This document shows, one piece after another, positions 949 to 27,133 of a stretch of DNA of 32,000 nucleotides. The stretch spans positions 1,740,001-1,772,000 of the forward strand of contig NC_017080.1 of assembly GCF_000284115.1 (NCBI RefSeq), in the 5' to 3' direction. Both the position numbers and the translations under genes were made by a program. Every line of letters starts with the position of its first letter. Within the stretch, counting starts at the first letter, position 1. The DNA comes from Phycisphaera mikurensis NBRC 102666. GTDB taxonomy: Bacteria > Planctomycetota > Phycisphaerae > Phycisphaerales > Phycisphaeraceae. The notes below the pieces were generated by a model. That model made no database searches. It worked only from the letters and a program-made list of their open reading frames with translations, and was not told where the DNA came from.

Positions 949-994
949 CCGCGGACCGCCGCCGCCCAGCACCCGAACGACCGGCGGTCCGCGG
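949..994. repeat. 46-nt palindromic element copy 1 (CCGCGGACCG-N26-CGGTCCGCGG); arms extend to 13 bp perfect (949-961 / 982-994)
   Basis: Read directly from the sequence. Lies 55 nt downstream of the stop at 894, in a terminator-like position. Confidence 0.85.
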
Positions 995-1386
995 CCACCC
1001 GCTCCGCCGCGTGCCGCTCGCTGCATGGGACTTCCGCCGCCACGCCGCCGCCGCCACCGCCGCCTCGGGCACCGACCCCTTCACGCGGGGAGGCCCGTCC
1101 GCCTGCGTGCCCACCGGCCGCGGCGCGGGCTTCGCATGCCGTCGATTCCGCTCTACGCCCGCCGCAGCGTTGCCGTTCCGGCCAGCGGCCGGGCGTTGGT
1201 GCTCCGCCGACACCGCCTCGAGAAGGATCGGCTGAGGGGCGCACCGGCGTAAGCGGCAGGCCGCGCTCGGGACACGCCCTGCACCCGCGGCGGCGTTTCG
1301 CGATGCTCGGGAACCCCGGCGGCACCCGCGTCGTCCAACCCGCGATCCGGAGACCCGCTCCGGCCCGCGCCCGCCCGAACCGAACC

Positions 1387-3408
1387 ATGCACCCCTGCTC
1401 CGCCCTCCGCTTCGCCGTCGCCCTCGCCCTTCCCGCCCTCTCCCTCCACGCCGAGCCCGCCGACCTGCCGCTGGATGCCATCACGCTGTACTCCAGCGGG
1501 GTCGGGCACTACCGCCACGCGGGCGCGGTGCCGGCCGGCGGCGAGGTGACGCTGAACCTCGACGCGGAGGAGCTCAACGACGCGCTGAAGAGCCTCACCG
1601 TCGGCGGGCTCGGCGGCAGCGGCGGGGTCAGCGTGAGCTACCCCGGGCAGGCGGGCGTCGATCAGCGGCTGGCCGCCTTCGGCGTGGACGTCCGCGGCGT
1701 CGGCAGCCGGGCGGCGCTGCTGGATCGGCTCCGGGGCGTGCCGGTGACGGTCACCCTCGGCACCGGCGAGGCCCGCTCCGGCCGCGTGCTGGCGGTCGAA
1801 GAGCGCGAGGTGAGCGGCGGCGACGAGACGCCGGCGACCTCCCGACGCGTGCTCACGCTGGTGAGCGGCTCGGGCATCGTCGACGTCGACCTCGAGAAAG
1901 TCGGCGGGCTGACCATCGAGGACGAGCGGCTGGCCGGCGAGCTGAAGGCAGCGCTGGAGCTGCTCGCGTCGCAGCGCGACACCCGCACCAAGCCGCTGAC
2001 GCTCACCTTCGCCGACGCGGCGGAGGACGCGCGGGTCTCCTACCTCGCCCGGGCCCCGCTGTGGAAGCTGTCCTACCGGCTGGACCTCTCCGGCGACGAC
2101 CCGCTGCTGCAGGGCTGGGCCATCGTCGACAACCCCAGCGACCGCGACTGGGACGCGGTGGGCGTGACGCTGGTCTCCGGCCGGCCGATGAGCTTCGTGC
2201 AGGACCTCTACACCCCGGCGTACCTGGAGCGGCCGGTGGTCGAGCCGGAACGCTTCGCGGGGCTGGAGCCCGAGGAGCACGGCCAGGGCTCCGCCGAAGG
2301 CTTCGCGGGGGCGGAGATGGACGCGATGGCGGTGCCGGAGACCGCGCCGATGGAGCCGGCCCTCCTGGAGCGATCGCGCGTCTCGCCGTCGCGTCGGGCG
2401 CCGGCGGCCGCGGGCCTGGAGAGCCTTGCGCCGGCCGCCGAGGCCGCCGATCTCGGGCAGCTGTTCGCGTACACCCTCGCCGAGCCGGTCACGCTCGCCC
2501 GCGGCGCGTCCGCCATGCTCCCGGTCCTGGACGCCGCCATCGAGGCCGAGGCGGTGTCGGTCTTCAACGCGGGCGTGCTGGAGGCGCACCCGCTCCGCGG
2601 CGTCCGCCTGAAGAACACCACCGAGCTCAAGCTCGACGCGGGCCCTGTCACCGTGCTCGACGGCGGCGCCTACGCCGGCGACGCCCGGCTGGGCTTCCTC
2701 GCCCCCGGCGACGACCGGCTGATCACCTACGCGGTGGACCTGGAGGTGACGGCGACGAGCAACGAGCGCTCCGACTCCACCCGGGTCGGCGCTTCCTTCG
2801 ACCGCGGCGTGCTCGTGCTCCGGGTGCGCGACGTGCTCGAGCACCGGGTCGGCTTCCGCAACGCCGCCGGCGACGCCCGCAAGGTGCTGGTCGAGGTCCG
2901 ACGCGAGCCCAACTTCGAGTGGGCGGAGCCGGCCGGCGACGTCGAGACGCTGATCGATCGGTACCGCTTCCCGCTGGCGGTCCCCGCGGGCGGCGACGCC
3001 GAGGCCGTCGCGAGACAGGTGCGGACCCGCAGCGAGCGGGTTTCGCTGGTCGGCCTCGACGGCGAGCGTCTCGACCGGCTCGCGCTCGGTGGCGGCGTCG
3101 AGCCCGCCGTCGCGGAGAAGCTGGAGGAAGCCGCGGCCCTGCGTCGGGTGCTCTCGGAGGCGGAGCGCGCCGTCGAAGCCGCCGACGCCGAGCGGCAGCG
3201 CATCGCGGAGGAGCAGGAGCGCATCCGCGAGAACCTCCGCCCGCTGGACCGCGACAGCGCCCTCCGCCAGCGCTACGTCGACATCCTCGACCGGCAGGAA
3301 GATCGCCTGGCCGCGCTCGTGGACGAGCGGGCGGCGGCGGCGGCGGCCGTGGAGGAGGCGCGGGACGCGTTCCTGCGGTTCGTCGCCGGGCTCGGCGGTT
3401 CGCGCTGA
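1387..3408 (+). CDS. Secreted DUF4139/DUF4140-type protein (MuiA-like family) with a C-terminal coiled coil
   Basis: Part of ORF 922..3408. ATG at 1387 gives the signal peptide MHPCSALRFAVALALPALSLHA. The in-frame stretch 922-1386 has many A/T-ending codons and Pro/Arg-rich junk, so I treat it as non-coding. LPLDAITLYSSGVGHY, then WKLSYRLDL and GWAIVDNPSDRDW, resemble DUF4140/DUF4139. The Glu/Arg/Ala-rich heptad-like tail is AEKLEEAAALRRVLSEAERAVEAADAERQRIAEEQERIRENL. Confidence 0.6.
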   Translation: MHPCSALRFAVALALPALSLHAEPADLPLDAITLYSSGVGHYRHAGAVPAGGEVTLNLDAEELNDALKSLTVGGLGGSGGVSVSYPGQAGVDQRLAAFGVDVRGVGSRAALLDRLRGVPVTVTLGTGEARSGRVLAVEEREVSGGDETPATSRRVLTLVSGSGIVDVDLEKVGGLTIEDERLAGELKAALELLASQRDTRTKPLTLTFADAAEDARVSYLARAPLWKLSYRLDLSGDDPLLQGWAIVDNPSDRDWDAVGVTLVSGRPMSFVQDLYTPAYLERPVVEPERFAGLEPEEHGQGSAEGFAGAEMDAMAVPETAPMEPALLERSRVSPSRRAPAAAGLESLAPAAEAADLGQLFAYTLAEPVTLARGASAMLPVLDAAIEAEAVSVFNAGVLEAHPLRGVRLKNTTELKLDAGPVTVLDGGAYAGDARLGFLAPGDDRLITYAVDLEVTATSNERSDSTRVGASFDRGVLVLRVRDVLEHRVGFRNAAGDARKVLVEVRREPNFEWAEPAGDVETLIDRYRFPLAVPAGGDAEAVARQVRTRSERVSLVGLDGERLDRLALGGGVEPAVAEKLEEAAALRRVLSEAERAVEAADAERQRIAEEQERIRENLRPLDRDSALRQRYVDILDRQEDRLAALVDERAAAAAAVEEARDAFLRFVAGLGGSR

Positions 3409-3544
3409 GCCCCGCCGGGGATCCGCTCCGCCCGGCGCCCGGGGGCATCCGCCGGGTCTTCCGCACCTCCGCGGCATCGCGTGCGACCGGTGCCGCCGGT
3501 AGGCGCTCCTTCGTGCCCGGTGCCGCGGGGCGTTCCGGGGTTGG

Positions 3545-3565
3545 GCGTCCTCCCAGGGAGGACGC
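3545..3565. terminator. GC-rich hairpin between convergent genes (gcgtcctccc a gggaggacgc)
   Basis: 10-nt perfect inverted arms. Sits 3 nt beyond the minus-strand stop at 3569 and 137 nt after the plus-strand stop at 3408. No T-tract. Confidence 0.4.
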
Positions 3566-3568
3566 GCT

Positions 3569-4615
3569 TCAGGCGTCCTTCTTGTAGTACTCGATCTGCC
3601 GCCCGGCCTGGTCGGCGCACGCCGCCAGCAGCTCGTCCGCCCGCGCCGCGGTCATGCCGCCGAAGCCGCTCGCCGCCGCGAGGTTCTGCCGCAGCTCCAC
3701 CGCGTCCTCCATCCCGCTGATGAGCGACGCAACCGGCAGCGACCAGACGTAGCCGAAGGCGTCCTCCAGGCTCACCCGCTGCGGGATCACCGCGACCGGC
3801 GGCGGCGAGTTCTTGCCCCAGCTCTTGTCCACACCGGTGAGGTTCCCGCCGGCGAGCGTCTTCATCGCGAGCACGCCGTAGCCGTGCTCGACCAGCCGCG
3901 GCAGCACCGTCTCGGTGTACGAGAGGTAGCCCGGCTCGATCACGTTCATCGGCATCTGCGCCGCGTCGAGGTGCGTGCCGAGGCCGTCGAGCCGGTCGAG
4001 CATCCGGTGGAAGGCGGCCGGGTCGCGGTGGCCGGTGAAGCCGATGTGCCGGATCTTCCCCTCGTCGCGGGCCTTCATCAGCTCGTCGAGCACGCCGTTG
4101 TCCAAGCGCTCGTCGACGTCGCCGACGCTCTCGAGGGAGTGGATCTGGTACAGGTCGATCACGTCGACGCCGAGGCGCTTCAGGCTGCCGTCGAGCTGCT
4201 TCCGCGTGCCTCTCGCGTCCTTCGCGTTCACCTTCGACATGAGGTAGAGCACGTCGCGGTGCTTCGGCACGAGGAGCTCGCCGAAGCGCTGCTCGCTGCC
4301 GCCGTTCTGGTAGGAAACGGCCGTGTCGATGAAGCGGATGCCCCCGGCCATCGCCTCCTCGATCAGCGCCTCGGCGTCGCGTTCGGAGCCGATGGCGCCG
4401 ACGTGGTAACCGCCGAGGCCCAGCACCGTCACCCGCTCGCCGGTCCGGCCGAGCGGGCGGGTCGGCAGCAACTCGCCCACGCGGTCGCGGGCGGGGGCCG
4501 AGGGGGCCGAGCCCGCGGCGGAGGAGGAGGATCCCTCCGCTCCCGCGGCGAGCGGCAGGCCCGCGGCGGCGGCAACGGCGGAAAGACGCTTGAGCAGGTC
4601 GCGGCGTGGCAGCAT
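3569..4615 (-). CDS. Aldo/keto reductase with twin-arginine (Tat) signal
   Basis: Real start is the ATG at 4615 ([26 protein letters not shown]). AKR-typical segments: [35 protein letters not shown]. The upstream part of ORF 3569..5050 is low-complexity junk. Confidence 0.8.
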
Positions 4616-4667
4616 GCAAGAGCTTACGGCCCGCCGCTTCCTCCGCGCCGCGGAGCGACCCGGCGGC

Positions 4668-6332
4668 TCAGCGCGCCGCGTCCCCGCCGGCCTCCACGCC
4701 GATGCCGCGGCGTTGGAGCAGGCTGCCCTCGGCGAGCTGGAGGTCGATGAGGGCGAGGCGGTGCTCGGTGCGGCTGGTGACGACGGCGATCTCGGCGGCG
4801 AGCAGGTCGCGGCCGGCGAGGGCGGCGTCGAGGCTGGTGGCCTCGCCCGCCTCGAAACGCTGGCGCTCGCCGGCGGCGACGCTGCGCTGGAAGGCGAGGG
4901 TGGCGCGGCTGGCCGCGATCTGCTGACGGGCACGCTCGAGCTCGACGGCGGCGCGGCGGACCTCCAGCCGAACGAGCTGCACGAGGTTCGCCACGGCGGC
5001 GGCCGACTGGGCCCGCGTGGCGGAGGCGGCGCGGTCGAAGCCCTCGGCACGCTCGTTGCCGAGCGGGGCGACGAAGCGGAAGCCGGTGGCGAGGTCGTAG
5101 CTCTCCGAATCCAGGTCGTCGAAGCTGCCGGCGAAGGTGTCGTCGAAGCCGGCCTTGCCCAGGTCCAGGAAGACCTCCAGCCGCGGCAGCAGGCCGTTGC
5201 GGGTGAGCACGGTCTCCAGCCGGTCCTGCTCCAGCCGGACGCGGGCCTCGAGCAGCTCGGGCCGGACGCGGGTGGCGAGGGCGACGCGCTCCTCGAGGTC
5301 GTCCACGGGCGGCGGGTCGGCGCCGAAGGCGTCGTCGCCGGGCGCCTCGGTGGCGACGGGGCGGGTGAGCCAGTCGGCGTCGGCGGGCCCGTCGAGGTCG
5401 CCGGTGGGGCCCCCCAGCAGGCGCAGCAGCGCGAGCCGACGGGCCTCGCGGAGGCTGCGCGCGTCGATGAGGTCCTGCCGGCGGAGCGCCGCCTCGGCCT
5501 CGGCGGCGGCGCCGGCGTTGGGCGCGAGGGCCCCGGCGGCGATGCGGCGCCGCGCGGCCTCGCTCTGCTGCTCGGCGAGCTCCAGGGCGCGTTCGAAGAG
5601 GGCGAGCCGCTGCCCGGCGAGGCGGTAGAGCCACCAGGCCCGCTCGGCGTCGGCGAGCAGCCGCTGCACGAAGCCGCGCAGCTCGTGCCGGCTGGCGTCG
5701 ACGTCGAGCCCGGCCTGCCGCAGACGCACGAGGTTGGCCGCCGGGCCGGCGCCGCGCAGCAGCTGCTGGGTGACGGTCAGCCCCAGCCGCGCGTCCTGCT
5801 GCTCGGGCGCCCGGTCGGAGCTGCTGCGCTGCTGGTCGACCGAGAGCTCCACCTCGGTGCCGGTGGGCAGCAGCTGCCGCAGGCCCGCGACGGTGCGGAG
5901 GTCGTCGCCGTCGACGCTGAAGCGTTCGCCGGTGGCCCGGCTGGTCTCGGTGATGGAACGCTCCTGGTAGGTCAGCTCGGCGAAGGCCTCCGGGTCGAAT
6001 ACGCCCCGCTGCACGCGCTGCAGCGCCGCGGCGATGGCGGGGCTCTGGGCGCTCACCGCCAGCTCGCGGTTGGCCGCGAGCGTCATGAGCAGCGTCCGCC
6101 CGAGCGTCAGCCGCAGCTCGCCGCTCCCGCCGATCCGGACCGCTTCCGCTTCCCCGGCCGCGAAGCCGACGGCGGGCGCCTCCGCCGCGGCGTCCTCGGC
6201 CGCGTCGGCAACCGCTTCACGCGTCGCCTCGGGCCAGTCCACGCCCAACAGCGGCGACCGCTCGGGCGCCAGGCAGCCGGTCAGCGCGAGGCACCCGAGA
6301 GACGCCAAGATCCACGGCACCCCGCTCCTCAC
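4668..6332 (-). CDS. RND efflux outer membrane factor (TolC/NodT family lipoprotein)
   Basis: C-terminal 554 aa of ORF 4668..9302. GTG start at 6332 overlaps the pump stop as GTGA. Lipobox-like N-terminus [20 protein letters not shown]. Two-repeat, Ala/Leu/Arg-rich coiled-coil pattern typical of TolC-family proteins. Confidence 0.8.
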
Positions 6333-9300
6333 GCCGCCACCGCCGCGGACCGTGGCGCGAACGGGCGGTTCTGCCCCGCGGTCCGCGGATCCGCCCCGCG
6401 GTGGACCAGCGAGTACACCGCGGGGATCAGCACCAGCGTGATCAGCGTGGAGGCGATCAGCCCGCCGAGCACGGCCCGGGCCAGGGGGGCCTGGGCGTCG
6501 GCTCCTTCGCCGATGCCCAGCGCCAGCGGGAAGAGCCCCAGCACCGTGGTGAGCGTGGTCATCAGGATCGGCCGCAGCCGCCGCCGCCCGGCCTCGATCA
6601 CCGCGGCGTCGGTGCCCAGCGGGGCTTCGCCGCCCTCGCCGGCCCGCAGCTGCCGCGCCTGGTCCACCAGCAGGATGGCGTTGTTCACGACGATGCCGCC
6701 GAGCATGATGCAGCCGATGTAGCTCTGCAGGTTCAGCGTCGTGGACGTCAGGTACAGCGTCACCAGCACGCCCACCGCCGCGACGGGAACGGCGAGCATC
6801 ACCACGACGGGATCGCGCAGCGACTCGTACTGGCTGGCGAGCACCATGTAGACGAGCACCAGCGACAGCACGATGCTCACGAGCAGCTCGCGGAAGGCCT
6901 TCTTCTGCTCCTCGAGGCTGCCGGCGACGCCGAGTTCGTAGCCGGGCGGACGAGCGATGGTGGCGAGCCCGGCCTCGATGTCCGCGGCGATGGAGCCCAG
7001 GTCGCGGCCGCTGGTGTTCGCCCGGATCGTGGAGACGCGGCGCCCCTCCTCGTGGTCGATCTCCTCGGGGGCGAGGCCGTCGACGACGTCGAGCACGCTG
7101 CGCAGCGGGACGCGGTCGCTGCCGGCGCCGGCCACCGTCACCTGCAGATCCAGCAGCTCCTCGACCGGGAGCGAGCGGGCGTCGGCGAGGCGGACGCGGA
7201 TGGGGTAGCTGTCGCCGCCGCGGCGGAAGTCTCCGGCCTGCCGTCCCGCCACGGCGAGCTCGACGGTGCGGGCGAGGTCGACGACCTCCAGCCCCAGGTC
7301 CGCGGCCTTGTCGCGGTTGATCACCAGCTGCTTCTCGGGCGTCCCGACGCCGTCGGGCACGTTGACCCAGGTGACGCCGTCGACGCCCTGGACGACTTCC
7401 TCGGCGGCGAGCGTCAGCCGGCGCAGCTCGTCGAGGTCGGACCCGCGGATCTTCACCTCCAGCCGGCTGGCGTTGCCGCCGCCGAGCAGCCGCTGCAGCA
7501 GCCAGTCGCCCTGGGGCCCGTTGGCCCAGACGTCGCCGCCGGGGACGGTGCCGCGGATCACCCTCCGCAGCTCCTGGGCGACCTCCTGATTCGAGAGCTC
7601 GCGCTCGCTCGCGGGCGGGAGCTTCATCTCGATGCGGGCGCGGCCCGGGGAGGTCTCGACCATCTTGGCGGGGATGCCTGGCAGCGCCTCGTCGACGAGC
7701 TCCTCGAGCAGGCGGCTCTGCCGGTCGGTCAATTCCAGCGTGGTGCCGCTGGCGAAGTTGACGCCGGCCTGCACGCGGCCCTCGTCGGTGGGGGGCAGCA
7801 GCTCGGTGCCGATCAGCGGGAAGAGCAGCAGCGACAGGCCCAGGAGCGAGAACGCCGCGGCGACCGTGAGCCCGCGGAAGCGGAGCACGCGGCGGAGCAG
7901 CCGGCCGTAGGCGAGGCCCATGCGGTGGAGCCCGCCGCCGATGGCGGACGAGCCGCGGTCGACGATCCGCCGGAAGCCGGAGCGGGGCGGGGTCGCGTGC
8001 GGGTCGCCGGCGGCGTCGGCCGCGCTTGCCCCGCCGGCCCCGCCGCGGCCTCGCCGCGCGAGGAACTGCGAGGCGAGCACGGGCACCAGCGTGAGCGACA
8101 CGACCAGCGAGGCGAGCAGCGAGAACGCCACCACGTAGCCCAGCTGCCGGAACATGGTGCCCGCCGAGCCGTCGACGAAGACCAGCGGCAGGAAGATGAC
8201 CAGCGTGGTGACGGTGCTCGCGAGGATGGCCGGGCCGACCTCGGCGGCGCCGCGGATCGCGGCGGTCTTGCCGTCCTCGCGCTCCTCGTCCCGCCGCCGC
8301 GCGATGTTCTCGATCACGACGATCGAGCTGTCGACCATCATCCCCACGCCCAGCGCGAGCCCGCCGAGCGTCATGAGGTTCAGCGTCAGCCCGCCGCCGT
8401 TCATCAGCGCGAAGGTGGCGACGATGGCGATGGGGATCGCGATGGCGATGACCAGCGTCGAGCGGACGCTGCGGAGGAACACGAGCAGCACCAGCACCGC
8501 GAGCGAGCCGCCGTACAGGACCGAGCGGGCGACGTTGTCGATGCTCCGGTCGATGAAGCCGCCCTGGTCGGAGAGCGGCACGAAGCGGAGCTGCGGGAAG
8601 TCGGCCCGCAGCTCTTCGAGCTCCGCGAGCACGGCGTCGGCGACGTCCACGGTGTTGGCGTCGGCCTGCTTGTTGATGGCGATCCGCACGCCCGTGTCGC
8701 CGTCGATGCGGATGCCGCGGTCGCGGCGACGCGGCTGGAAGTCGACCTCGGCGATCTCGCCGAGCGTGACGACGCCGGAGGTCGCGTCGTCCCCGGGGGT
8801 CGCGACGACGAGGCGGCGCAGCTCGTCGATGCTCTTGAAGCCCGCGGGCGCCCGCAGGCCCACCGTGGCTTTGCCCTCGTCCAGCTCGCCGGCGGGGAGG
8901 TCCACGTTCGCGTCGCGGATCGTCTGCAGGAGGCCGTCGAGCGGGAGCTGGAGCGCCTTGACCTTTGCGGGGTCGAGGTCGACGTTGACCTCCCGGGCGG
9001 TGTCGCCCCAGATCTCCGCGTCCGCCACCCCCGGCACGCGGACCAGGCGGTCCTTGAGGGTTTCGATCGCGAGGTCCGAGAGCTCCAGCAGGTTCATCGG
9101 CCCGGAGACGCCGATGAGCACCACCGGGGAGGCGTTCACGTCCCACGTGTCGACGCGCGGCCGCGTCGCTTCGTCGGGGAAGCGGTTGGCGCCCTCGTCG
9201 AGCCGGGCCTTCACCGAGTCGGCGGCTTCGTCGATGCCCACCGACGGGCTGAAGCGGAGCCGCACCTGGCTGCGGCCCCGGCCCGACTCGCTGCTCATCC

Positions 9301-9535: not shown

Positions 9536-10881
9536 GCGTTGCGGCCGGCGGGTCCGGCTTCCTCGGGCAGGACCAGCGGGGCGACGGCCTCGCCCCGGGA
9601 CCGGGCCGGGTTGACCACCTGCCCGTCCTCGAGCAGCTGCTGCCCCAGCACGACCACCTCGCTGCCGCCGGGCAGCGGCGGCGAGAGCACCTGCACGCGG
9701 TCGCCGGCGGTCATGCCGAGCTCGACGGCGACCCGCTCCACCGCGGCGACGCCCGGGGGCAGCACGAAGACGATGTTCTCGTCGTCGCGCCGCGTGACGG
9801 CGTCGCGCGGCACCGAGACGGCGTCGTCGAGCGCCTCGAGGTCGGTGGTCAGGCGGACGAACATGCCCGGCCGCAGCAGGCCGTCGGGGTTGGCGACGTC
9901 GACCTCGACGCGGGCCTGCCGCGACGACTCCGAGAAAGAGGGGGCGAGGCGGTCGACCGCGGCGGCGAAGCGGCGGCCGGGGTACGCGTCGGTGGTCAGC
10001 TCGACCGGCTGCCCGGTGGAGAGGCCCGCGTGATCGGCCTGGGTGGCGCTGAACACGGCCCGCAGCGGGTCCAGCTGGACGAGGCGGACCAGCGGGTCGC
10101 CGGGGGAGACCGAGTCGCCCTCCTGCACGGTGACCGCGGCGACGCGGCGGGTGGCTCCCGCCCCGCCGAAGCGGGCCCGGACGGTGGCGTAGGAGCGGCG
10201 GATGCGGGCCGCGGCCGCTTCGGCTTCGGCGGACAGCCGCTGCGCCTCGGCGACCTCCACGGCCGCGGCCGCGGCGAGGCGGCGGGCCTCGGCGGTGTCG
10301 GCCTCGGCCTCGCTGGTCAGGCCCTCCTCCCGCAGCTGCCGAACGCGGGCGACGGTGCGCTCGGCGATCGTCTCGGCGGCGGTGGCCTCCGAGGCGTTGG
10401 CCTTCGCCACCGCGAGCCGGGCTTCGGCCGCCAGGGCCGCCTGCTCCAGCTCCTCGGGGTCGAGCTGGACCAGGGGCTGCCCGGGCTGGACCACGTCGCC
10501 GAGCCGCACGCCGACCGAGGTCACGCGTCCGCCCACCAGGGCCGAGGCCTCGAGCACCGCCGGGGAGACGAGTGTGCCGCTGAAGCCGCGGGTGCGCACC
10601 AGCGGCCCGACCTCCACCGGCGCCACGATGACCGCCGGCGCGACCGGCGCGTCGTCCTCGTCGGCGGGATCGGGCAGGAAGATCCCGGAGGTGCCCGAGA
10701 GGACGACCAGCGAGAGCCAAAGCAGAAGCGGCACGCCCAGGAGCAACGCGACGACGCGGCGCGGGGGCGTGGCGGCGGCCGCCCGGTCGGCCCGCGCCGG
10801 CGGCGCCGGCGCGGGCGTCCGCGGCGGGGCATCGGGCAGGGGTGGGGTTTCGGCGGGCGGATCGGCCGTGAGCGGCGGCAT
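9532..10881 (-). CDS. RND efflux periplasmic adaptor (membrane fusion protein, HlyD/AcrA family), system 1
   Basis: ATG at 10881 (MPPLTADPP...). Pro-rich N-terminus, one TM (VVALLLGVPLLLWLSLVVL), lipoyl-like and coiled-coil hairpin segments, beta-barrel region. The start is less certain than the rest of the call. Confidence 0.75.
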   Translation of the reverse strand: MPPLTADPPAETPPLPDAPPRTPAPAPPARADRAAAATPPRRVVALLLGVPLLLWLSLVVLSGTSGIFLPDPADEDDAPVAPAVIVAPVEVGPLVRTRGFSGTLVSPAVLEASALVGGRVTSVGVRLGDVVQPGQPLVQLDPEELEQAALAAEARLAVAKANASEATAAETIAERTVARVRQLREEGLTSEAEADTAEARRLAAAAAVEVAEAQRLSAEAEAAAARIRRSYATVRARFGGAGATRRVAAVTVQEGDSVSPGDPLVRLVQLDPLRAVFSATQADHAGLSTGQPVELTTDAYPGRRFAAAVDRLAPSFSESSRQARVEVDVANPDGLLRPGMFVRLTTDLEALDDAVSVPRDAVTRRDDENIVFVLPPGVAAVERVAVELGMTAGDRVQVLSPPLPGGSEVVVLGQQLLEDGQVVNPARSRGEAVAPLVLPEEAGPAGRNA

Positions 10882-15400: not shown

Positions 15401-15764
15401 GCAGATCGGCCTCGTGCTGCTGGTGGCGCTGGTGGCCAAGAACGCGATCCTGCTCGTCGAGTTCGCGGTGCAGAAGCGCAGCGGGGGCGACGGCGTGGTG
15501 GACGCCGCCGTCGAGGCGGCGCGGCTGCGCTTCCGGCCGATCCTGATGACGGCGTTCAGCTTCGTGCTCGGCACCGCGCCGCTGATGTTCGCCTCCGGCG
15601 CCGGGGCGACCTCCCGCCAGACGCTGGGCACCGCCGTCGTCGCCGGCATGGTCCTCGCCACCGCGTTGGGCCTGGTGATGACGCCGGTGTTCTACGCCGT
15701 GATCCAGCGGACCAAGGAGCGCTTCAAGCCGCGGACCGCGGACGAAAACGCCGAGAAAGCCTGA
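12450..15764 (+). CDS. RND multidrug efflux permease, HAE1 (AcrB/MexB-like), pump 2
   Basis: MLSRFFIHRPIFATVIALLTVVAGLVSVPLLPIEQYPEITPPTVRVSVRYPGADA is a near-textbook AcrB N-terminus. 1104 aa. Contains a low-complexity insert of about 55 aa in the central cytoplasmic linker. Confidence 0.92.
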   Translation: MLSRFFIHRPIFATVIALLTVVAGLVSVPLLPIEQYPEITPPTVRVSVRYPGADAVTLAETVTAPMEQAINGVEGMIYMKSTSSDDGSVSIDVTFELGTDADLAAVRVQNNVNIAEARLPEAVRRQGITVTKRSPSLLLVMSLVSDVDEATGEPIYDYAFLSNYATLRVLDPVARTPGVGEASLFGPRDYSMRIWLDPQKMRARDLTTVDVLAELRAQNVQLAAGRLGDQPTGDPDGFTYTLTSEGRLTDVSQFEEIIVKTGDDQRVVRVKDVGRVELGSELYGSTARRNGQPGAQIPVYQLPGSNSVETSAAVKAVMEELAADFPPGLRHEVTFDFTKFVEASIEEVVFTLLLASALVILVVFVFLQDWRATLVPAITIPVSLVGTLAALLVFGYSLNLLTLFGLVLAIGIVVDDAIVVVENCARKIEETGCCAADAATDAMREITGPIVATTLVVLAVFVPAALLPGLTGQLYRQFAVTLSVATVFSSVNALTLSPALCALLLKPSPGSRDAHGRREKAEAEPSRGEAEPPGGDGSGPGDDPQSEPAERERERAEASASPGRGGLLGKAFKPFNRGFDHATSGYAWLVGKAVALWPVTLVVYAAAAAATYLAVTLAPTGFLPEEDQGYFFINVQLPEASKLDRTDAVLRRVEQLLLDSPGVESTIAVAGFSLLAGVNAPNAALCVVIMEDWPERPDWPVTRLIEELGPRLGGIPDAAVFAFNPPAIRGLGQAGGFEMQIRDESDLGIEALAQATRAFLDAAAGDPKIGRALTTFNAQSPQQKIVIDREQHLKLGIEPEVVNDTLSTMLGGAYVNDFNYFGRVYRVYAQADTQYRQTEADLLNLQVRNDEGSMTPLDSFVELLPIVGPQNVVRYNLATSSTVNGSGAPGVSSGEVLSTVDRIAADVLPTGMGYDWTGVTYQQEQAGNTAPIVFALAVVVVFLVLAAQYESWTIPLAILLAVPLGVLGAVLGLLFRGFPNDVYAQIGLVLLVALVAKNAILLVEFAVQKRSGGDGVVDAAVEAARLRFRPILMTAFSFVLGTAPLMFASGAGATSRQTLGTAVVAGMVLATALGLVMTPVFYAVIQRTKERFKPRTADENAEKA

Positions 15765-15776
15765 CGGTCCGCGGCT
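15727..15776. repeat. 46-nt palindromic element copy 3 (arms extend to 12 bp), straddling the pump-2 stop codon
   Basis: Core arms at 15729-15738 and 15765-15774, with a 26-nt spacer. The spacer supplies the last codons ...PRTADENAEKA and the TGA at 15762-15764. Also lies 54 nt beyond the convergent stop at 15830. Confidence 0.85.
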
Positions 15777-15829: not shown

Positions 15830-17287
15830 TCAACCGCCCAGGGCCGCCGCGGCCGCGTACACCCGGCGGTTCAGCTCTTTCATGTGCTCGAGCAGGGGCG
15901 GGTAGGGCTCGAAGACGCTGGTCACGATGCCCTTGTTGCTGTCGCGGTTGCTCGGGTCGGTGTTGAGGTTGGTCGGGTCGTTGTCGCGGTACTTGAACCA
16001 GTGCCAGCCGACGCAGCCGCGCGTCTCCAGCAGCGAGAGCGCGTAGTGCTGGTAGAACGCGCCGCGGTCGGCCTGGGTCGGCACCGTCCAGCCGGCGCCG
16101 CTGCCGTTGCTCATCCCGCTGTCCTCGCCCTTGGCGTACCACTCGGTGACGATCACCGGGCGGTCGGCCCAGCGGGACAGCTCCTCGATCCGCCGGCCCG
16201 GCGTCCAGTCGTAGTAGTGGTTCGTCGAGAGCACGTCGGCGTGCCGGCCCACCGCCTCGACCAGCGGCCGGCACCGCTTCTCGCTGCCGTAGAGGCGCGG
16301 GCCGAGGATCAGGTGGTTCGGGTCCACCGCGCGGATCGCCTCCACGACGGTGCCGAGGTAGACGTCCATCACGTGCCCGCGCCAGCGCTCGCCGGAGGCC
16401 TCGCCGTCGCCGTGCTCGGCCACCCACCGCGCGGCCTCGGCCCGCCCGGGGTCGCCCTCCGCCAGCGCCAGGAAGCGCCGCAGCGAGTCCTTCGGGAAGG
16501 GCAGCTCGTTGTCGGTGAAGTGCCCGAGCAGCCAGGGGTCGTCGCGGGTGGCGGCGAGCCGCTGCCGCGCGTGGCGCCGGCAGAAGGCGGGGAAGGCGGG
16601 GTCGAAGGCGAAGATGCACGAACCGGGGTAGAGCTTGTGGCCCGAGCCCTGCGCGAGCCCGCCCCGCTCGCGCTCGCCGTAGGTCGTCATGAAGTTCGCG
16701 TTGGGGCAGTAGGCCAGCGGCGCCGGCCCGGCGCGGTTCAAGGCGTCGTCGCTCCAGCTGCCGGTCGTGTTGAAGCCGTGCTCGTGCAGCATCGGCTGGG
16801 TCTGGTCCCGCCAGCGCTCCGGCTCGCCGCCGAAGCGTTCCGCGTACGCCGCCGCGCCCAGCGTGCCGCCGTCCCGCTCGCCGGGGTTCTGCCCCCGGAC
16901 GCTGTTGAGCCCGACGCTGAGGAAGGGCAGCCCCTCGGGGTCGAACAGCCACCAGCGGCCGCCGTGCCGGCCGGTCGTGAAGAAGCCGGTGCCCGCGCGC
17001 CGGAAGGGCGACGCCGCCCAGCCGCCGTAAGGGCCGATCACGTCGGCCTCCGCCGGCAGGCCGGCGACGTCCTCGACCAGCCGCACCGGGTGCGGCTTGG
17101 CGTCCGCGGCGGTCTGCTTCTTGGTCCACACCCGCACGGTGCGCCCGCCGGACTGCGCACGAGCCGAACCGATCCCGCCGGTCACCCAGGCGGCCACGCC
17201 CGCGGCCCCCGCGAGCACGGCCGCGCGCCGGGAGAGCCGGGGCACCGGGAGCGGGCCGGAAGACGGGCGGGGAGCGGGCTTGGGCAT
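15830..17287 (-). CDS. Secreted (Tat-like signal) glycoside hydrolase-like TIM-barrel protein, clan GH-A type (agarase/beta-galactosidase-like); specificity unknown
   Basis: N-terminus LSRRAAVLAGAAGVAAWV. Candidate acid/base motif HFTDNELPF and candidate nucleophile motif VIVTEWYAKG. CVGWHWFKYRDND near the C-terminus. Family assignment is from pattern memory only. Confidence 0.55.
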   Translation of the reverse strand: MPKPAPRPSSGPLPVPRLSRRAAVLAGAAGVAAWVTGGIGSARAQSGGRTVRVWTKKQTAADAKPHPVRLVEDVAGLPAEADVIGPYGGWAASPFRRAGTGFFTTGRHGGRWWLFDPEGLPFLSVGLNSVRGQNPGERDGGTLGAAAYAERFGGEPERWRDQTQPMLHEHGFNTTGSWSDDALNRAGPAPLAYCPNANFMTTYGERERGGLAQGSGHKLYPGSCIFAFDPAFPAFCRRHARQRLAATRDDPWLLGHFTDNELPFPKDSLRRFLALAEGDPGRAEAARWVAEHGDGEASGERWRGHVMDVYLGTVVEAIRAVDPNHLILGPRLYGSEKRCRPLVEAVGRHADVLSTNHYYDWTPGRRIEELSRWADRPVIVTEWYAKGEDSGMSNGSGAGWTVPTQADRGAFYQHYALSLLETRGCVGWHWFKYRDNDPTNLNTDPSNRDSNKGIVTSVFEPYPPLLEHMKELNRRVYAAAAALGG

Positions 17288-17352: not shown

Positions 17353-18063
17353 TCAACCCATCGGCAGCGGGTCCGAGGACCGCACCGCGTCGATGGGCCG
17401 GCGTCGCAAGCGCGTCCGCTGCTTCCCCGCCTCGTCGAAGTTGACGGGCCGGAGCCACTCGACGAAGGCGGGCCGCCGCTCCGGCCACTCCCTGTCCAGC
17501 AGCGCGTAGCAGGCCGTGTCGCGGTTCTGGTCGCGGGCCACGCGGTGCTGGCGGGCGATGCCCTCGAAGCGGAAGCCGAGGCGGTCGGCGGCGCGGCGCG
17601 AGGGCTCGTCGCCGGCGTTGCACTTCCACTCCACGCGGCGGTAGCCGGCGGCGAAGGCGTGGTCGATCAGAAGGAAGTGGGCCTCGGTCGGGGCCTGCGT
17701 GGCGGCGTATCCGGGGCCGTGGGCGGCGTAGCCGATCCCGACCACGCCGTGCGGCGGGTTCATCTGCAGGTACGCCGCCATGCCCACCGCCGTTCCCTCA
17801 GGCCCGCGGAGCAGGCACGCGGCGGCGTCCAGGTCGATCGCGATCGCGTGCAGCCGGTCCCGCAGGTCCTCCGCCGTGTGGAGCGGGTCCCAGCCAAGCC
17901 ATCGGAGGTGGTGATCGGCCCGCTCGTCGCCGCCGAAGGCCTCCCAGAGCGGGGCGGCGTCGCGGTCGGGGTCCAGCGGCCCGATCGAGAGCCAGTGCCC
18001 GCGGACCCGCGGGGCGGCGAGCGGCGGCGGCGGCGTCCAGTGCAGCGGGGGGCGTGCTTCCAT
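17353..18063 (-). CDS. GNAT family N-acetyltransferase (RimJ/RimL-like)
   Basis: ATG at 18063 (MEARPPLHW...). YRRVEWKCNAGDEPSRRAADRLGFRFEGIARQH is the typical Acetyltransf_3 core. The upstream part of ORF 17353..18810 is Arg-rich junk. Confidence 0.75.
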   Translation of the reverse strand: MEARPPLHWTPPPPLAAPRVRGHWLSIGPLDPDRDAAPLWEAFGGDERADHHLRWLGWDPLHTAEDLRDRLHAIAIDLDAAACLLRGPEGTAVGMAAYLQMNPPHGVVGIGYAAHGPGYAATQAPTEAHFLLIDHAFAAGYRRVEWKCNAGDEPSRRAADRLGFRFEGIARQHRVARDQNRDTACYALLDREWPERRPAFVEWLRPVNFDEAGKQRTRLRRRPIDAVRSSDPLPMG

Positions 18064-19235: not shown

Positions 19236-20518
19236 CAGTCGGTTCCGCCTGCGGCGGGGGGGAGCAGGTCGCGGAGCATCCGCGCGTGGCGGGCGGTGGC
19301 GCCCTGGTGGGCGAGGATGACGGCTTGGCCGGCGGCGGCGACCTCGGCGGCGAGTGTCGGATTCGCCAGCAGCTCGGCGGTGGTGGAGGCGGGGTCGTCG
19401 GTGACGAGCAAGCCGCCGGCGTTTCGCATGATCGCGACGGTCTCGGCGAAGTCCTTGTGGTGGGGGCCGATCATCGTGGGCACGCCCAGCGCGGCGGGCT
19501 CCATGGCGTCGCTGCCGTAGAGGTCGCCCAGGAAGCTGCGGCCGACGATGGCAACGTCGGCGAGGGCGTAGGCGCGGCCGAGTTCGCCGATCGTGTCCAG
19601 CAGGAAGACGCCGGAGGTCCCGCGGACCGCGGTGCTGCGGCGGCCGAATCCCGCGCCGTCCGCGGCGCAGGCGGCCGCCGCGGCGGCGAAGTGCTCGGGC
19701 TTGCGGGGGGCGATCAGCAGCTGCGCATCGCGCGGGCGGCCGCGCAGCAGGAACGCCGGCTCGCCCGGCCCGGTCGAGCCGGCGACCACGAGCGGGCGGT
19801 CGCGGTCGATGCCCATGGCTTCCGCGAGCTCCGCCGCCCCGGGCACGCCGGCTTTGGCCCGCACCACCGCGTTGTCCCACTTCATCGTGTCCAGCACGCG
19901 GACGCGCTCGGCCGGCGTGCCCAGCGCCACGAAGCGTCGGCCGTAGGCCTGGGTCTGCACGCCCGCCGCGGCCACCGCGGCGAAGGCGGAGCGGACCAGC
20001 GGCCGGGCGAGCCGGTAGCGGCGGAACGACCGCTCCGAGAGACGCCCGTTGACAATCGCGACCGGGACGCCGCGGAGCCTCGCCGCCGCGACGAAGTTCG
20101 GCCACAGCTCCAGCTCCACCGTCGCGACGAGGTCGGGCCGGATGGCGTCGAGGAAGCGGCCCACGGCCCAGGAGAAGTCCAGCGGGTAGCGGACCACCGC
20201 CACGCCCTCCCGGCCGCCGTAGAGCTGCTGGGCCCGGTCGACGCCCGTGTTCGTCGTCACCGCGAGGACCAGGCCGCACGGCTCGGGGCCGCTCCGCAGC
20301 GCGTCCACCAACCCCCGCAGCGCGTTGACCTCGCCCACCGAGACCGCGCAGAACAGGATCCGCGGACCGCCGGCGTTTTCGAGGGTTTCGCCCGACGGTC
20401 CGCGGCCGAAGCGGCCGGCCCAGTCGGTCCGCCACTTGCCGGTCCGCAGCAGCGACGCGCCCCACAGCGGCGACGACGCGAGCAGCCCCGCGGCGTACGC
20501 CGCGTCGCGGGCGAGCAT
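19235..20518 (-). CDS. waaA: 3-deoxy-D-manno-octulosonic acid (Kdo) transferase
   Basis: ATG at 20518. ILFCAVSVGEVNALRGLVDAL (the hAvSvGE motif), ELWPNF, FLLDTIGELGRAY, GGHN-like PHHKDFAE region. Confidence 0.85.
   Translation of the reverse strand: MLARDAAYAAGLLASSPLWGASLLRTGKWRTDWAGRFGRGPSGETLENAGGPRILFCAVSVGEVNALRGLVDALRSGPEPCGLVLAVTTNTGVDRAQQLYGGREGVAVVRYPLDFSWAVGRFLDAIRPDLVATVELELWPNFVAAARLRGVPVAIVNGRLSERSFRRYRLARPLVRSAFAAVAAAGVQTQAYGRRFVALGTPAERVRVLDTMKWDNAVVRAKAGVPGAAELAEAMGIDRDRPLVVAGSTGPGEPAFLLRGRPRDAQLLIAPRKPEHFAAAAAACAADGAGFGRRSTAVRGTSGVFLLDTIGELGRAYALADVAIVGRSFLGDLYGSDAMEPAALGVPTMIGPHHKDFAETVAIMRNAGGLLVTDDPASTTAELLANPTLAAEVAAAGQAVILAHQGATARHARMLRDLLPPAAGGTD
19620..19665. repeat. 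46-nt palindromic element copy 6 (one mismatch in the right arm), inside waaA coding sequence
   Basis: Left arm ccgcggaccg at 19620-19629 is exact. Right arm ccgtccgcgg at 19656-19665. Spacer is exactly 26 nt. Confidence 0.6.
20360..20405. repeat. 46-nt palindromic element copy 4, inside waaA coding sequence
   Basis: Exact arms at 20360-20369 and 20396-20405, with a 26-nt spacer. Encodes RGPSGETLENAGGPR just before the conserved SVGE motif. Confidence 0.85.
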
Positions 20519-22501: not shown

Positions 22502-23062
22502 ATGAGCCAGCCCGCGCACGCCGCCCGCTTCTTCACCGCCACGGGCCTTTTCGTCCTGCTCCTGTTCACCGGCACCGCCTGGGTGACGCTCGTCGAGGTG
22601 ATCCCCGCGGGGCTGCCGCGCGACCTGGTGACCTGCGGCGTCGGCCTCGCCTTCGCCGCGGTTTTCCTCTGGCTGCTGGTGACGCGCGTGCAGGCGGTCT
22701 ACGCGGGCGAGGGCTTCCGCCGCCGGGACGTCGCGATGATGGCGGTCAACCTTCTGCTGATGCTGCTCGCGTACGCCTACGTCTACGGCGTGCTGGGCAT
22801 CACCGACACCACCCGCGAGGGCAACCCGGTCGTCGGCGGCGTGAACGAGGGCTTCTCGTTGCTCACGCTCGCCCGCTGCTTCTACTTCTCGGTCGCGACG
22901 CTGACCACCGTTGGCTACGGCGACTTCCGCCCGACCGCGGGCGTCTGCCGGGTGGTCGCCGGCAGCCAGGCGTTGCTGGGCTACCTGGTGCTGGGGGTGC
23001 TGGCGTCCACGGCGGCCAACCTGATCCAGAGCGTCGCGGGACGCGGCGGCGGGAGGGGCTGA
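22502..23062 (+). CDS. Small potassium channel-like protein (Ion_trans_2 pore domain)
   Basis: Selectivity-filter signature TLTTVGYGD flanked by hydrophobic helices. 186 aa with about 4-5 predicted TM segments. Confidence 0.8.
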   Translation: MSQPAHAARFFTATGLFVLLLFTGTAWVTLVEVIPAGLPRDLVTCGVGLAFAAVFLWLLVTRVQAVYAGEGFRRRDVAMMAVNLLLMLLAYAYVYGVLGITDTTREGNPVVGGVNEGFSLLTLARCFYFSVATLTTVGYGDFRPTAGVCRVVAGSQALLGYLVLGVLASTAANLIQSVAGRGGGRG

Positions 23063-23093
23063 GCCGGCGGCGACCGCACGGGTCGGCGCCGGC
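23063..23093. terminator. Strong GC hairpin between convergent genes (7 bp + 1 mismatch + 5 bp stem, 5-nt loop)
   Basis: gccggcg g cgacc gcacg ggtcg g cgccggc. Starts 1 nt after the channel stop and ends 17 nt before the convergent stop at 23110. No T-tract. Confidence 0.5.
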
Positions 23094-23109
23094 GGACCGG
23101 GGCGCGGGA

Positions 23110-23490
23110 TCAATTCCGAGGCGCGTCGGGGCGGCGCGGCCGCTGGTCGTCGCTGTCGCCGTTGCCGCCCGGCTCGCGGGCCGCGGCGCCGGGGTTGTTG
23201 AAGAGGCGGTCCAGCAGCAGGCCGTTCTCCAGCACCATCTGGTCGTCGCCGCGGTCGACCGAGTACACCAGCAGCGTGCTGGTGGCGTGGTCGATCACGA
23301 ACAAGCCCTCTTCGCGGCCGTCGATGCCGGCGGTCAGGAGCGTGACGTTTTCCTGGGGGTTGTAGATCGCGGCTCCGGCTTCGGGCACGCCCGCGTGGCC
23401 CGCGAGGCGGACGAGCAGGGCGCCGCCGAGCACGAGGGCGGAGGCGGCGAGGCCGGGGATCAGCAAGTCGGGGCGGGCGGGGGTACGCAT
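23110..23490 (-). CDS. Small N-terminally anchored or secreted hypothetical protein (paralog A)
   Basis: Near-saturated G/C at third codon positions. N-terminal hydrophobic segment LLIPGLAASALVLGGALLV. Core NVTLLTAGIDGREEGLFVIDHATSTLLVYSVD. Acidic/Pro-rich tail. Confidence 0.65.
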   Translation of the reverse strand: MRTPARPDLLIPGLAASALVLGGALLVRLAGHAGVPEAGAAIYNPQENVTLLTAGIDGREEGLFVIDHATSTLLVYSVDRGDDQMVLENGLLLDRLFNNPGAAAREPGGNGDSDDQRPRRPDAPRN

Positions 23491-24970: not shown

Positions 24971-24995
24971 GCACGATGCTCTAAGCGGGTTCCGG

Positions 24996-25400: not shown

Positions 25401-27041
25401 ATGAGCGAGAGCAACCCCCCCAAGCCCGTCGTCGTCGTCGTCCGCGACGGCTGGGGCCACAACCCCGACCCGTCCCACGACGACTTCAACGCGGTGCACC
25501 TGGCCGAAACCCCCGGCAGCGACGGCCTGAAGGCGCGCTTCCCGCACACCCGCCTGCACACCAGCTCGCGGCACGTGGGCCTGCCCACCGGCACGATGGG
25601 CAACAGCGAGGTCGGGCACCAGAACATCGGCGCCGGCCGCGTGGTGAACCAGGAGTCGACGCGCATCACCGTCGCCGCCGAGGACGGCAGCTTCTTCGAG
25701 AACGTGGCGCTGCTCGCGGCCACCCGCGCCGCACGCGACGCCGGCAAGAAGCTGCACCTGCTGGGCATCGCCTCCGACGCCGGCGTCCACGGGCTGATGG
25801 ACCACCTCTACGCCTGCCTCGAGCTGGCCCGGCGGGAAGGCCTGCCGCCCGGGGACGTGTGCCTGCACCTGTTCAGCGACGGCCGCGACACCGGCCCCTT
25901 CACCGGCAAGGCGTTCCTGCGGGAGATCGAGGCGAAGTGCCGGGAGATCGGCGTGGGCCGCGTCGTCTCGCTGATCGGCCGCTACTTCGCCATGGACCGC
26001 GACAGCCGGTGGGAACGCGTGGCCCGGGCCCACGACCTGCTCACCGGCCGCGGGGAGACGCCGCCTTCCTTCGCCGACGCGGCCTCCGCCGCGCAGGCCT
26101 ACTACGACGCGCCGACGAACGACAGCCAGGCCGGCGACGAGTTCATCACGCCGCGGACGATCGGCGAGGACCCCGCCGGCACCCGCGTGTCCGCCGGCGA
26201 CGCGGTCGTCTTCTACAACTACCGCGGCGACCGGCCGCGCGAGCTCGTGCGGGCTTTCATGCAGCCCGACTTCCACGGCAACGTGCCGCCCTCGCCCGAC
26301 ACCGGCGAGCGTGGCTTCGACCGCGGCCCGGACCTGGGCCTCCGCTTCGTCTGCATGACCGCGTACGACGAGGGCTTCACCGGCTTCCCCGGCGTCACCG
26401 TCGCCTACCCCAAGCCGCCGAAGATGGGCGGCATCGGCGGCGAGGTGATCGCCGAAGCCGGGCTCACCCAGTTCCGCTGCGCCGAGACCGAGAAGTTCCC
26501 GCACGTCACCTTCTTCGCCAACGACTACCGCGAGGCGCCGTTCCCCGGCGAGACGCGCGGCATGGCGCAGAGCCCCAAGGTCGCGACCTACGACCTGCAG
26601 CCGGAGATGTCCGCCGACGAGGTGACGCGGCTGGTGCTCGAGCAGGTCGAAAGCGATGCCTGCCCGGACTTCATCCTCGTGAACTACGCCAACGGCGACA
26701 TGGTCGGTCACACCGGCAAGCTCGACGCCGCGATCGCCGCGGTCGAGAAGGTCGACGCCTGCGTGACGCGGCTCGTGGACGCGGTGCTCGCCCGGGGCGG
26801 GGCCCTGCTCGTCACGGCCGACCACGGCAACGCGGAGCAGATGTTCGACCCCTCCACCGGCAGCCCGCACACCGCGCACACCCTCAACGACGTCGACTGC
26901 ATCGTGGTGAAGGCCGGCCTGGACGCCGCGACGCCGCTGCGGTTCGGCGCGGCGCTGTGCGACGTCATGCCCACCGTGCTCGACCTCCTGGGCCTCGACA
27001 AGCCCGCCGCGATGACCGGCGCCACGCTGCTCGTCCGCTGA
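25401..27041 (+). CDS. gpmI: 2,3-bisphosphoglycerate-independent phosphoglycerate mutase
   Basis: ATG at 25401. TGTMGNSEVGHQNIGAGR, SDGGVH-like SDAGVHG, FSDGRDT, GRYFAMDRDSRWERV, FYNYRGDRPRE, NYANGDMVGHTG, TADHGNAE. Confidence 0.92.
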   Translation: MSESNPPKPVVVVVRDGWGHNPDPSHDDFNAVHLAETPGSDGLKARFPHTRLHTSSRHVGLPTGTMGNSEVGHQNIGAGRVVNQESTRITVAAEDGSFFENVALLAATRAARDAGKKLHLLGIASDAGVHGLMDHLYACLELARREGLPPGDVCLHLFSDGRDTGPFTGKAFLREIEAKCREIGVGRVVSLIGRYFAMDRDSRWERVARAHDLLTGRGETPPSFADAASAAQAYYDAPTNDSQAGDEFITPRTIGEDPAGTRVSAGDAVVFYNYRGDRPRELVRAFMQPDFHGNVPPSPDTGERGFDRGPDLGLRFVCMTAYDEGFTGFPGVTVAYPKPPKMGGIGGEVIAEAGLTQFRCAETEKFPHVTFFANDYREAPFPGETRGMAQSPKVATYDLQPEMSADEVTRLVLEQVESDACPDFILVNYANGDMVGHTGKLDAAIAAVEKVDACVTRLVDAVLARGGALLVTADHGNAEQMFDPSTGSPHTAHTLNDVDCIVVKAGLDAATPLRFGAALCDVMPTVLDLLGLDKPAAMTGATLLVR

Positions 27042-27058
27042 AGCGTCCGGCGGCCGCA

Positions 27059-27078
27059 GCCCGCCGCCGCCGGCGGGC
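27059..27078. terminator. Hairpin gcccgccg-ccgc-cggcgggc, 18 nt after the gpmI stop
   Basis: 8-bp perfect GC stem with a 4-nt loop. No T-tract. Immediately followed by element copy 5. Confidence 0.4.
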
Positions 27079-27087
27079 GGGGCGGCG

Positions 27088-27133
27088 CCGCGGACCGGCG
27101 GGCGTGGCGGGCCGAGACAGCCGCGGTCCGCGG
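27088..27133. repeat. 46-nt palindromic element copy 5, intergenic between gpmI and the GT21 gene
   Basis: Exact arms at 27088-27097 and 27124-27133, with a 26-nt spacer. Ends 13 nt before the ATG at 27146. Its right flank is aatcctcccccc. Confidence 0.85.

Follow-up and report, generated by a model that had tools for sequence, protein, structure and literature searches.

A palindromic unit with conserved 10-nt arms and a fixed 26-nt spacer recurs at gene ends and within genes of Phycisphaera mikurensis and its relatives

The 32 kb of Phycisphaera mikurensis NBRC 102666 DNA analyzed here (NC_017080.1; the window in what follows is this whole stretch), from a marine bacterium of the Planctomycetota, contains six copies of a dyad-symmetric repeat unit made up of two inverted 10-nt arms held apart by a 26-nt spacer (CCGCGGACCG-N26-CGGTCCGCGG). 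The unit is also present in related species, where arms and spacing are retained at orthologous positions while the spacer changes. It is best read as an interspersed palindrome resembling the repetitive extragenic palindromic (REP) sequences and the tuberculosis rho-independent terminator (TRIT) palindromes, with ends that a sequence-specific factor would recognize and a G+C-rich stem that would lie at the 3′ ends of transcripts. This reading is held tentatively, at a probability of about 0.45. The kind of element is known, while its architecture and pattern of conservation are new.

The G+C content of the window is approximately 75%, with about 93% of it coding and 7–8% intergenic. Its waaA product is 100% identical to that of P. 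mikurensis, and five more of the encoded proteins match entries of strain NBRC 102666 exactly. The initial annotation of this DNA had reported that the arm occurs 11 times, always in inverted pairs 26 nt apart, and that five exact pairs of this kind were essentially impossible by chance. A recount on both strands agrees, with 11 occurrences of CCGCGGACCG compared with 1.66 ± 1.17 in dinucleotide shuffles (maximum 5, with 0 of 100 shuffles reaching 11). A search of the window for inverted pairs that allowed any gap from 20 to 32 nt gave five matches, all of them N26, against an expectation of 0.00. These are the copies with exact arms, E1 (949–994, where pairing extends to 13 bp), E2 (6343–6388), E3 (15729–15774), E5 (20360–20405) and E6 (27088–27133). 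The eleventh arm (19620–19629) is the exact left arm of E4 (19620–19665) and is paired at exactly N26 with CCGTCCGCGG, which carries one mismatch, the chance of such a one-mismatch pair in 32 kb being estimated at below 1e-3. A profile built from 59 copies found no additional full-length copy in the window. An origin by chance, base composition, local duplication or assembly artefact might draw on the high G+C content of the genome and on the 272 sites that match the arm with up to two mismatches, a number at chance level. Set against this, the exact counts lie far above the shuffles, the unit occurs in other species, and the flanks and spacers of the window copies are unlike one another, so that segmental duplication does not account for them. 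A second assembly of P. mikurensis (GCA_014207395.1) and a read-built Logan contig contain the same copies as well, which disposes of the assembly artefact that the initial annotation had listed among possible refutations. The probability of an origin of this kind is negligible.

The strictness of the spacing is a property of the clade as a whole. Contigs of relatives (L-numbered loci) were reached via WaaA and both resistance-nodulation-division (RND) pumps at 74–86% protein identity, and the P. mikurensis region was extended to 49.3 kb. The spacer histogram that had been proposed as a check shows a sharp peak, with 24 of the 25 exact arm pairs found up to 200 nt apart in 197.6 kb of clade DNA having a 26-nt spacer and the remaining one N25. 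In contrast, a scan of a genome collection with the gap set to N{11,41} gave a flat distribution of single chance pairs from 11 to 41 nt in unrelated high-GC loci, with N26 in 3 of 121 pairs (120 loci among the matches listed), and serves as the background for the 26-nt peak. Unpaired exact arms in 198 kb of clade DNA number about 12, with about 10 expected by chance. Length variants are rare, consisting of two N25 copies, one of which has exact arms (L179:17212–17256 and L184:15464–15508), and two N27 copies (L179:16871–16917 and L177:687–733); the N27 copies have two and three arm mismatches, so that a change in length tends to accompany arm decay.

The 49.3 kb of P. mikurensis DNA holds eight good copies and one decayed copy, the extension beyond the window having added one exact, one single-mismatch and one decayed copy. 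Among the relatives, six copies were found in 21 kb of L121, seven in 22 kb of L182, four in 17 kb of L183, five in L178 and three in L179 (in addition to one N25 and one N27 variant), with one copy in 21 kb of L180, one or two in L184 and none in 11 kb of L181. This amounts to around one copy per 3–6 kb in most clade loci, the density being lower in the L180/L184 lineage, and suggests that copies probably number in the hundreds per genome. Three of the five copies in L178 belong to a 420-bp unit repeated three times in tandem (L178:6051–7088) within a called 345-aa open reading frame (ORF) that has no Pfam match, each tandem unit holding one copy of the element with the variant right arm CCGTCCGCGG. 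In L182 the stretch 1026–6689 brings together genes for a reverse transcriptase, a Schlafen/AlbA_2 protein and the S and M pair of a type I restriction-modification system. Element copies lie at the borders of this defence-like island, at 895, at 3882 (within the tail of HsdS) and at 6757. Beyond the clade loci, a scan of metagenomes for the exact N26 unit found it in 53 contigs, of which 31 came from a single marine assembly carrying dozens of copies, while the viral contigs scanned gave no match. Rfam returned nothing at the elements at either gathering or permissive thresholds (E ≤ 5), and a full-text search of the literature library used found the string only in unrelated papers and nothing on repeats in P. 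mikurensis. The initial annotation knew of no described element with this sequence and took the copies for a genuine repeat in which the arms are conserved, the spacing is strict and the spacer varies; both statements are in keeping with these results.

Comparison of orthologous copies reveals where the constraint lies. E5 is present at the same site in waaA in 4/4 of the species examined, with 0/20 arm columns variable versus 12/26 spacer columns (p = 4e-4), and with 11/16 of the flank columns variable across the four. Likewise E2 is present in the tail of RND pump 1 in three species, including L182 and L183 (20/20 arm positions), with 0/20 arm columns variable versus 16/26 in the spacer (p = 6e-6). 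Rare GGA and GGT codons that fall within arms are kept in the relatives. Taken together these patterns indicate that purifying selection maintains the arms and the 26-nt spacing of orthologous copies, with the spacer diverging meanwhile. Invariant arms at a fixed spacing amid a changing spacer imply that some cell factor probably reads the units. Not all copies are retained, with the pump-1 tail of L184 being of equal length with unrecognizable arms, E2 having decayed there, and with only a decayed right half of E3 left in L180. The L180/L184 lineage has lost both E2 and E3 and has few copies overall. With arms and spacing frozen at retained copies and whole copies decaying elsewhere, the constraint is strong, yet individual copies can be lost.

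The anatomy of the unit was derived from 55–59 non-redundant copies drawn from the clade loci and the marine assembly, each half being read from its own arm. The unit spans approximately 46–54 bp and runs from an outer flank through the arm CCGCGGACCG, a Y-S-G triplet, an A/T-rich slot and a G+C-rich centre into its mirror image. The outer flank has the weak consensus G-R-A-T/K, with the base before the arm almost never A, and the consensus of the right flank reads A-T-Y-C with no T run. Within the spacer, 94% of half-sites have T or C at position s1 and 74% have G at s3, while G or C occupies s2, s4 and s5. The A/T slot lies 7–10 nt from each arm and reaches 61–65% A/T at s8–s9, compared with about 11–16% either side and a genome A+T content of 26%, with the two slots of a unit one helical turn apart. 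Slot words are GTTTC-like or GAAAC-like and occur in either orientation, and the symmetric profile is the same in two independent sets of copies. The spacer had previously been described as free, which is only partly right, its composition being position-specific. Each arm also contains the sub-palindromes CCGCGG and CGGWCCG; a reading of these as restriction sites (SacII and RsrII sub-sites) was rejected, their numbers outside elements being 400 versus 425 expected and 19 versus 20 expected, respectively.

The placement of copies was established from a gene map of the window that combined third-position G+C, Pfam and the gene calls accompanying the contigs, and the initial annotation had placed all six window copies correctly. 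Of the eight good copies of P. mikurensis, four lie entirely between genes, two run over the end of an ORF and two are inside genes, so that copies are concentrated in the small intergenic fraction of the DNA. Intergenic copies make up about half of those in the relatives, mostly downstream of at least one stop, with several overlapping ORF ends and a minority internal, and copies in the clade loci often lie 2–20 nt after a stop codon. For the metagenome copies, whose surrounding genes were called roughly from third-position composition, at least 11 of the 36 start 2–17 nt past a called stop codon.

In the window, E1 is intergenic, lying 55 nt downstream of the stop of an MqnC/CofH-like (mqnC-like) gene (894) and 393 nt upstream of the start of a DUF4139 gene (1387). 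E2, on the minus strand, is read as the final 19 codons of RND pump 1 (stop at 6329–6331) and lies just upstream of the gene for an outer membrane factor, which starts at 6320. E3 spans the TGA (15762–15764) of RND pump 2 and encodes the last 11 codons of the protein (tail PRTADENAEKA), a convergent gene ending at 15830. Both E4 and E5 lie inside waaA, E4 being read in the frame A-A-D-G ... A-V-R-G with a spacer that encodes a conserved F-x-R-R-S motif, and E5 encoding RGPSGETLENAGGPR in a variable N-terminal linker. E6 is intergenic, 47 nt after the stop of gpmI (27041) and 12 nt before the ATG of a glycosyltransferase gene (27146). As RNA, the six copies are predicted to form stable hairpins of −23 to −34 kcal/mol with stems of 10–13 bp, the energy coming essentially from the arms and 20–26 nt in the centre of the 46–54 nt unit being left unpaired. 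Individual values are −28.9 kcal/mol for E1 (z −3.9), −33.9 for E2, −23.3 for E3, −31.1 for E5 and −29.4 for E6, with the fold of E4 having a z of only −1.3.

In the preferred reading the copies would go back to one palindromic master sequence, which would have spread in the clade's ancestor, no present copy looking young. The arms would then persist through recognition by a trans-acting, sequence-specific protein. Since transcription of the upstream gene must extend into most copies, each may add a 10–13 bp G+C-rich stem (−23 to −34 kcal/mol) to an mRNA 3′ end or intercistronic region, where it would protect or define the end of the transcript rather than act as a classical terminator. The first of the three explanations that the initial annotation offered without choosing between them, a REP-like or Rickettsia palindromic element (RPE)-like palindrome, is the nearest in distribution and is retained in so far as the unit is interspersed, lineage-specific and near gene ends, shows turnover and shares its niche with other palindromes; it does not carry over in its details, the shared spacers being absent and the internal copies not being RPE-like.

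Several sets of observations weigh against this reading, namely those on hallmarks of REP biology, on the spacer, on the role of the stem and on copies within genes. The GTAG or CGTC foot tag of REPs was not found in the flank consensus. No ORF like those of the REP-associated tyrosine transposases (RAYT, PF01797; HUH...Y) was found by regular expression among six-frame ORFs in about 350 kb of clade and metagenome DNA, which is a weak test. Independent copies share at most about 20/26 spacer positions, with the best non-orthologous pairs at 18–20/26, and closer spacer matches are confined to orthologues and one local tandem repeat. This dissimilarity gives no sign of recent copy-and-paste, unlike the populations formed by REP doublets forming hairpins (REPINs).

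Pairing between mirror positions of the spacer equals the column-shuffle expectation without any excess, and a model in which the hairpin extends into the spacer was rejected accordingly. Variants in one arm are uncompensated on the opposite arm, the commonest being C to G at position 9. The two slots of one element are in direct arrangement in 18 cases versus palindromic in 9, and a hairpin does not need a fixed 26-nt loop. Such features, with the invariant arms, the fixed spacing and the A/T slots, would fit a site read as duplex DNA at least as well as they fit a hairpin. The alternative that follows is a duplex site for a dimeric or tetrameric protein, which might be nucleoid-associated, related to topology or a gene-end factor, in which one subunit or dimer would sit on each arm and the A/T slots would let the 26-bp linker bend, with the sites being kept, and perhaps created, by selection in place. 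In its favor are also the symmetric composition of the spacer in two independent sets, the acceptance of slots in either orientation, the sub-palindromes within each arm, the presence of some copies in divergent promoter regions and the neutrality of some coding copies with regard to length. It is difficult to reconcile with the amount of sequence involved, some 40 bits of exact sequence at hundreds of sites being very unlikely to evolve in place, and with unpaired arms being at chance level, such that no intermediates of evolution in place are seen. The clustering of copies just past stops and their absorption into ORF tails look like insertion at gene ends, and the decay of whole copies in relatives implies that many sites are dispensable. 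This explanation appears doubtful, although it is the main rival to the preferred one; the bipartite protein site suggested in the initial annotation gains support from the invariant arms, the fixed spacing, the symmetric A/T slots and the lack of spacer pairing.

A role for the stem as a terminator or as a processing signal acting solely at the RNA level has also to be considered, in which a U-tract-free hairpin would be read by a factor that binds double-stranded RNA, as has been proposed for TRIT. Stable G+C-rich stems do lie right after stop codons, and canonical T-tract terminators number 3 versus 3.2 expected in the first 20 kb of the window, with the terminator scan matching no element. 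TRIT provides a precedent, and in a hand tally with rough gene calls the A-rich spacer is on the sense strand in 17 cases versus 7, a bias that is not significant. Other gene ends in the window bear unique G+C-rich hairpins immediately after the stop (3545–3565, 28450–28490 and 23062–23110). Among them are an GCGTCCTCCCTGGGAGGACGC hairpin 4 nt past the stop of an aldo-keto reductase gene and, where the GT2 and HlyD genes converge, a stem of 12 bp, both of these again without a T-tract. Hairpin stability was rejected as a discriminator of gene ends, being uninformative because 50-nt windows average −18.8 kcal/mol at such G+C content. Conversely, only 12 nt separate E6 from the next co-directional start and 22 nt separate the L177 copy from proC, so that transcription must read through both, and copies are found within waaA and mnmE and between divergent genes (L182:19319 and L183:3795). 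In addition the predicted TRITs of Mycobacterium tuberculosis overlap only 2–4% of mapped 3′ ends, making even their terminator role doubtful. The second proposal of the initial annotation, if taken as a true terminator, is weakened by the lack of a T-tract and by these placements. A pure terminator role is unlikely, and the broader explanation by an RNA hairpin alone is improbable, the loop of fixed length and the lack of compensatory change in the arms standing against it.

The coding copies fit an inserted element only in part. Compared with distant homologues, the pump-1 proteins of the clade have tails extended by about 15 aa, with the extra residues encoded by E2, as expected of an old insertion that came to be translated as part of the ORF. 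By contrast, the codon count at E4 is the same as in relatives without the arms, and its spacer is resident waaA sequence, the F-x-R-R-S motif being shared with distant WaaA proteins. Similarly the linker that contains E5 is 20 aa long versus 17–23 aa in homologues without the element and is thus not lengthened, and in L180 the part of mnmE that contains an exact copy is 7 aa longer than in Escherichia coli, not 15. Such length-neutral coding copies are a real anomaly for models of palindromes based on insertion.

A molecular drive, by which an uptake-signal-like or repair-biased sequence would be introduced where it stands and maintained there, also inside genes, would accommodate the gain of arms around resident waaA sequence at E4, the length neutrality of coding copies and the conservation of orthologous positions. 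The coding copies use all three reading frames (PRT...RSA, xAD...VRG and RGP...GPR), all of which encode common residues. The layout of the unit, a core with A/T tracts at about +8 and +18, recalls the extended uptake signal sequence (USS) of Haemophilus, in which phased A/T tracts adjoin the core. Single arms are not enriched in the clade, whereas known uptake signals are single motifs, and to our knowledge natural competence has not been reported in the group to which Phycisphaera belongs. The sub-palindromes occur at expected frequency outside elements, and a bipartite target of 20 bp has no obvious stepwise path to its formation. This explanation is therefore very improbable. A more specific claim is that the 10-N26-10 unit is a bipartite signal installed in place and not an insertion, through biased repair or conversion or through uptake by a dimeric receptor, its arms arising around resident sequence even in essential genes (waaA and mnmE), with protein length unchanged, and staying invariant thereafter. 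This claim is quite improbable; if true, it would represent a drive undescribed for so long a target of fixed geometry, in a phylum for which neither process is known.

Evidence for an insertion event was also sought in the flanks. No target-site duplication was found, only 4 of 59 copies having AT on either side, as many as would be expected if the two flanks were independent, and CCACC on both sides of E1 was rejected as a duplication, not being repeated at other copies. No clean empty site was found either, the copy at 12942 in L178 being absent from L121 as part of a larger indel that includes a GTAG REPIN and leaves no readable boundaries. A link to the neighboring insertion sequences IS66 (L179) and IS3 (L121) was rejected, their terminal repeats being unrelated and 57–84 nt away. 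In L121 and L178 (both at 10103–10131) the left arm of the waaA copy is directly adjoined by an indel of 18 nt (CGGTCCGGCGCGGAAAT...). P. mikurensis and L179 lack this indel, which includes CGGTCCG and might be what is left of another unit next to the first.

Other palindromes occur in the same genomes. GTAG-tagged REP pairs (GTAGGGTGCGTCTGGACGCACC, with the inverted partner about 180 nt off) are present in the proB-def spacer of L121 (12716–12920) and L178 (12717–12920 and 12998–13155), and none was found in 49 kb of P. mikurensis. They are of the type listed beside a RAYT of Planctomyces brasiliensis (Quentin et al., 2018). A third family, CCCGGCAAC-N4-GTTGCCGGG, forms inverted pairs 80–170 nt apart and is abundant in the lineage with few 10-N26-10 units (L180:11508–11607, 17372–17675 and 19609–19710; L181:5868–5968; L121:3156–3296), one copy in L180 beginning on the stop codon of pump 2, the place held by E3 in P. 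mikurensis.

We know of almost no characterized cis-elements in the Planctomycetes. Units of this family, probably several hundred in number and invariant at their ends, appear to mark gene boundaries in Phycisphaera, and the factor that reads them would, once found, provide a first handle on the machinery of transcript ends or chromosome organization in this group. The unit could also serve as a portable and defined module for genetic tools. The distinction between frozen arms and spacing and a free spacer is unusually clean and makes the question of hairpin versus duplex directly testable.

Several known systems share individual features with the unit. Like miniature inverted-repeat transposable elements (MITEs) and Correia elements it has terminal inverted repeats, is interspersed near genes and is co-transcribed, differing in that it is much shorter (46–54 bp) and has no target-site duplication. 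The paired DNA uptake sequences (DUS) of Neisseria and USS of Haemophilus likewise comprise an exact 10-nt core that is over-represented, occurs as inverted pairs after genes, has coding copies without indels and is conserved in relatives. DUS and USS are however mostly single motifs with variable spacing where paired, whereas in the clade single arms are at chance level and N26 is fixed. RPEs of Rickettsia are palindromic repeats that can lie inside protein genes and be translated, but they are in-frame insertions of 100–150 bp that add peptide, while the copies at E4, E5 and mnmE add little or no length.

Class 3 TnpA(Y1) genes occur chiefly in Planctomycetes and Acidobacteria, and one genome contains about 600 copies of the structure associated with them (Quentin et al., 2018, PMC6006769). 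These structures have the foot CnGA, and their CCGA-G-CCGCGACCGT resembles the CGGA-T-CCGCGGACCGT of the unit at 15/16 positions with one gap, in sequence that is G+C-rich and of low complexity. They differ in being local hairpins of 26–30 nt with 4-nt loops, and C-n-G-A is present in only 17 of 118 half-sites of the unit, such that the resemblance is a lead only. In Mycobacterium, TRIT is a conserved palindrome near stop codons that often overlaps the ORF end, with a factor reading the stem having been inferred (Gardner et al., 2011, PMC3152330). The unit resembles it as a conserved, bidirectional palindrome restricted to a clade of high G+C content and associated with stop codons. TRIT belongs to another phylum and is likened here by description, the unit differing in its long fixed spacer with A/T slots and in having copies inside genes and between divergent genes.

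The REPs of Enterobacteria and Pseudomonas, and the bacterial interspersed mosaic elements (BIMEs) that they form, are short (20–40 nt for a REP), interspersed and imperfect palindromes that are mostly extragenic and lie at gene ends and between cistrons, as the unit does. REPs are bound by IHF, gyrase and Pol I and stabilize upstream mRNA. REPINs form a near-identical population around a master, no such population being seen here, and the canonical GTAG REPIN family that coexists in two of the relatives is clearly distinct from the 10-N26-10 unit. A REP has a loop of 3–5 nt or is part of a REP doublet, while the unit has 10-bp arms around a fixed 26-nt variable spacer. In common with the unit, the stem sequence of REPs is conserved across related species, and the linkers of BIMEs make composites of fixed geometry.

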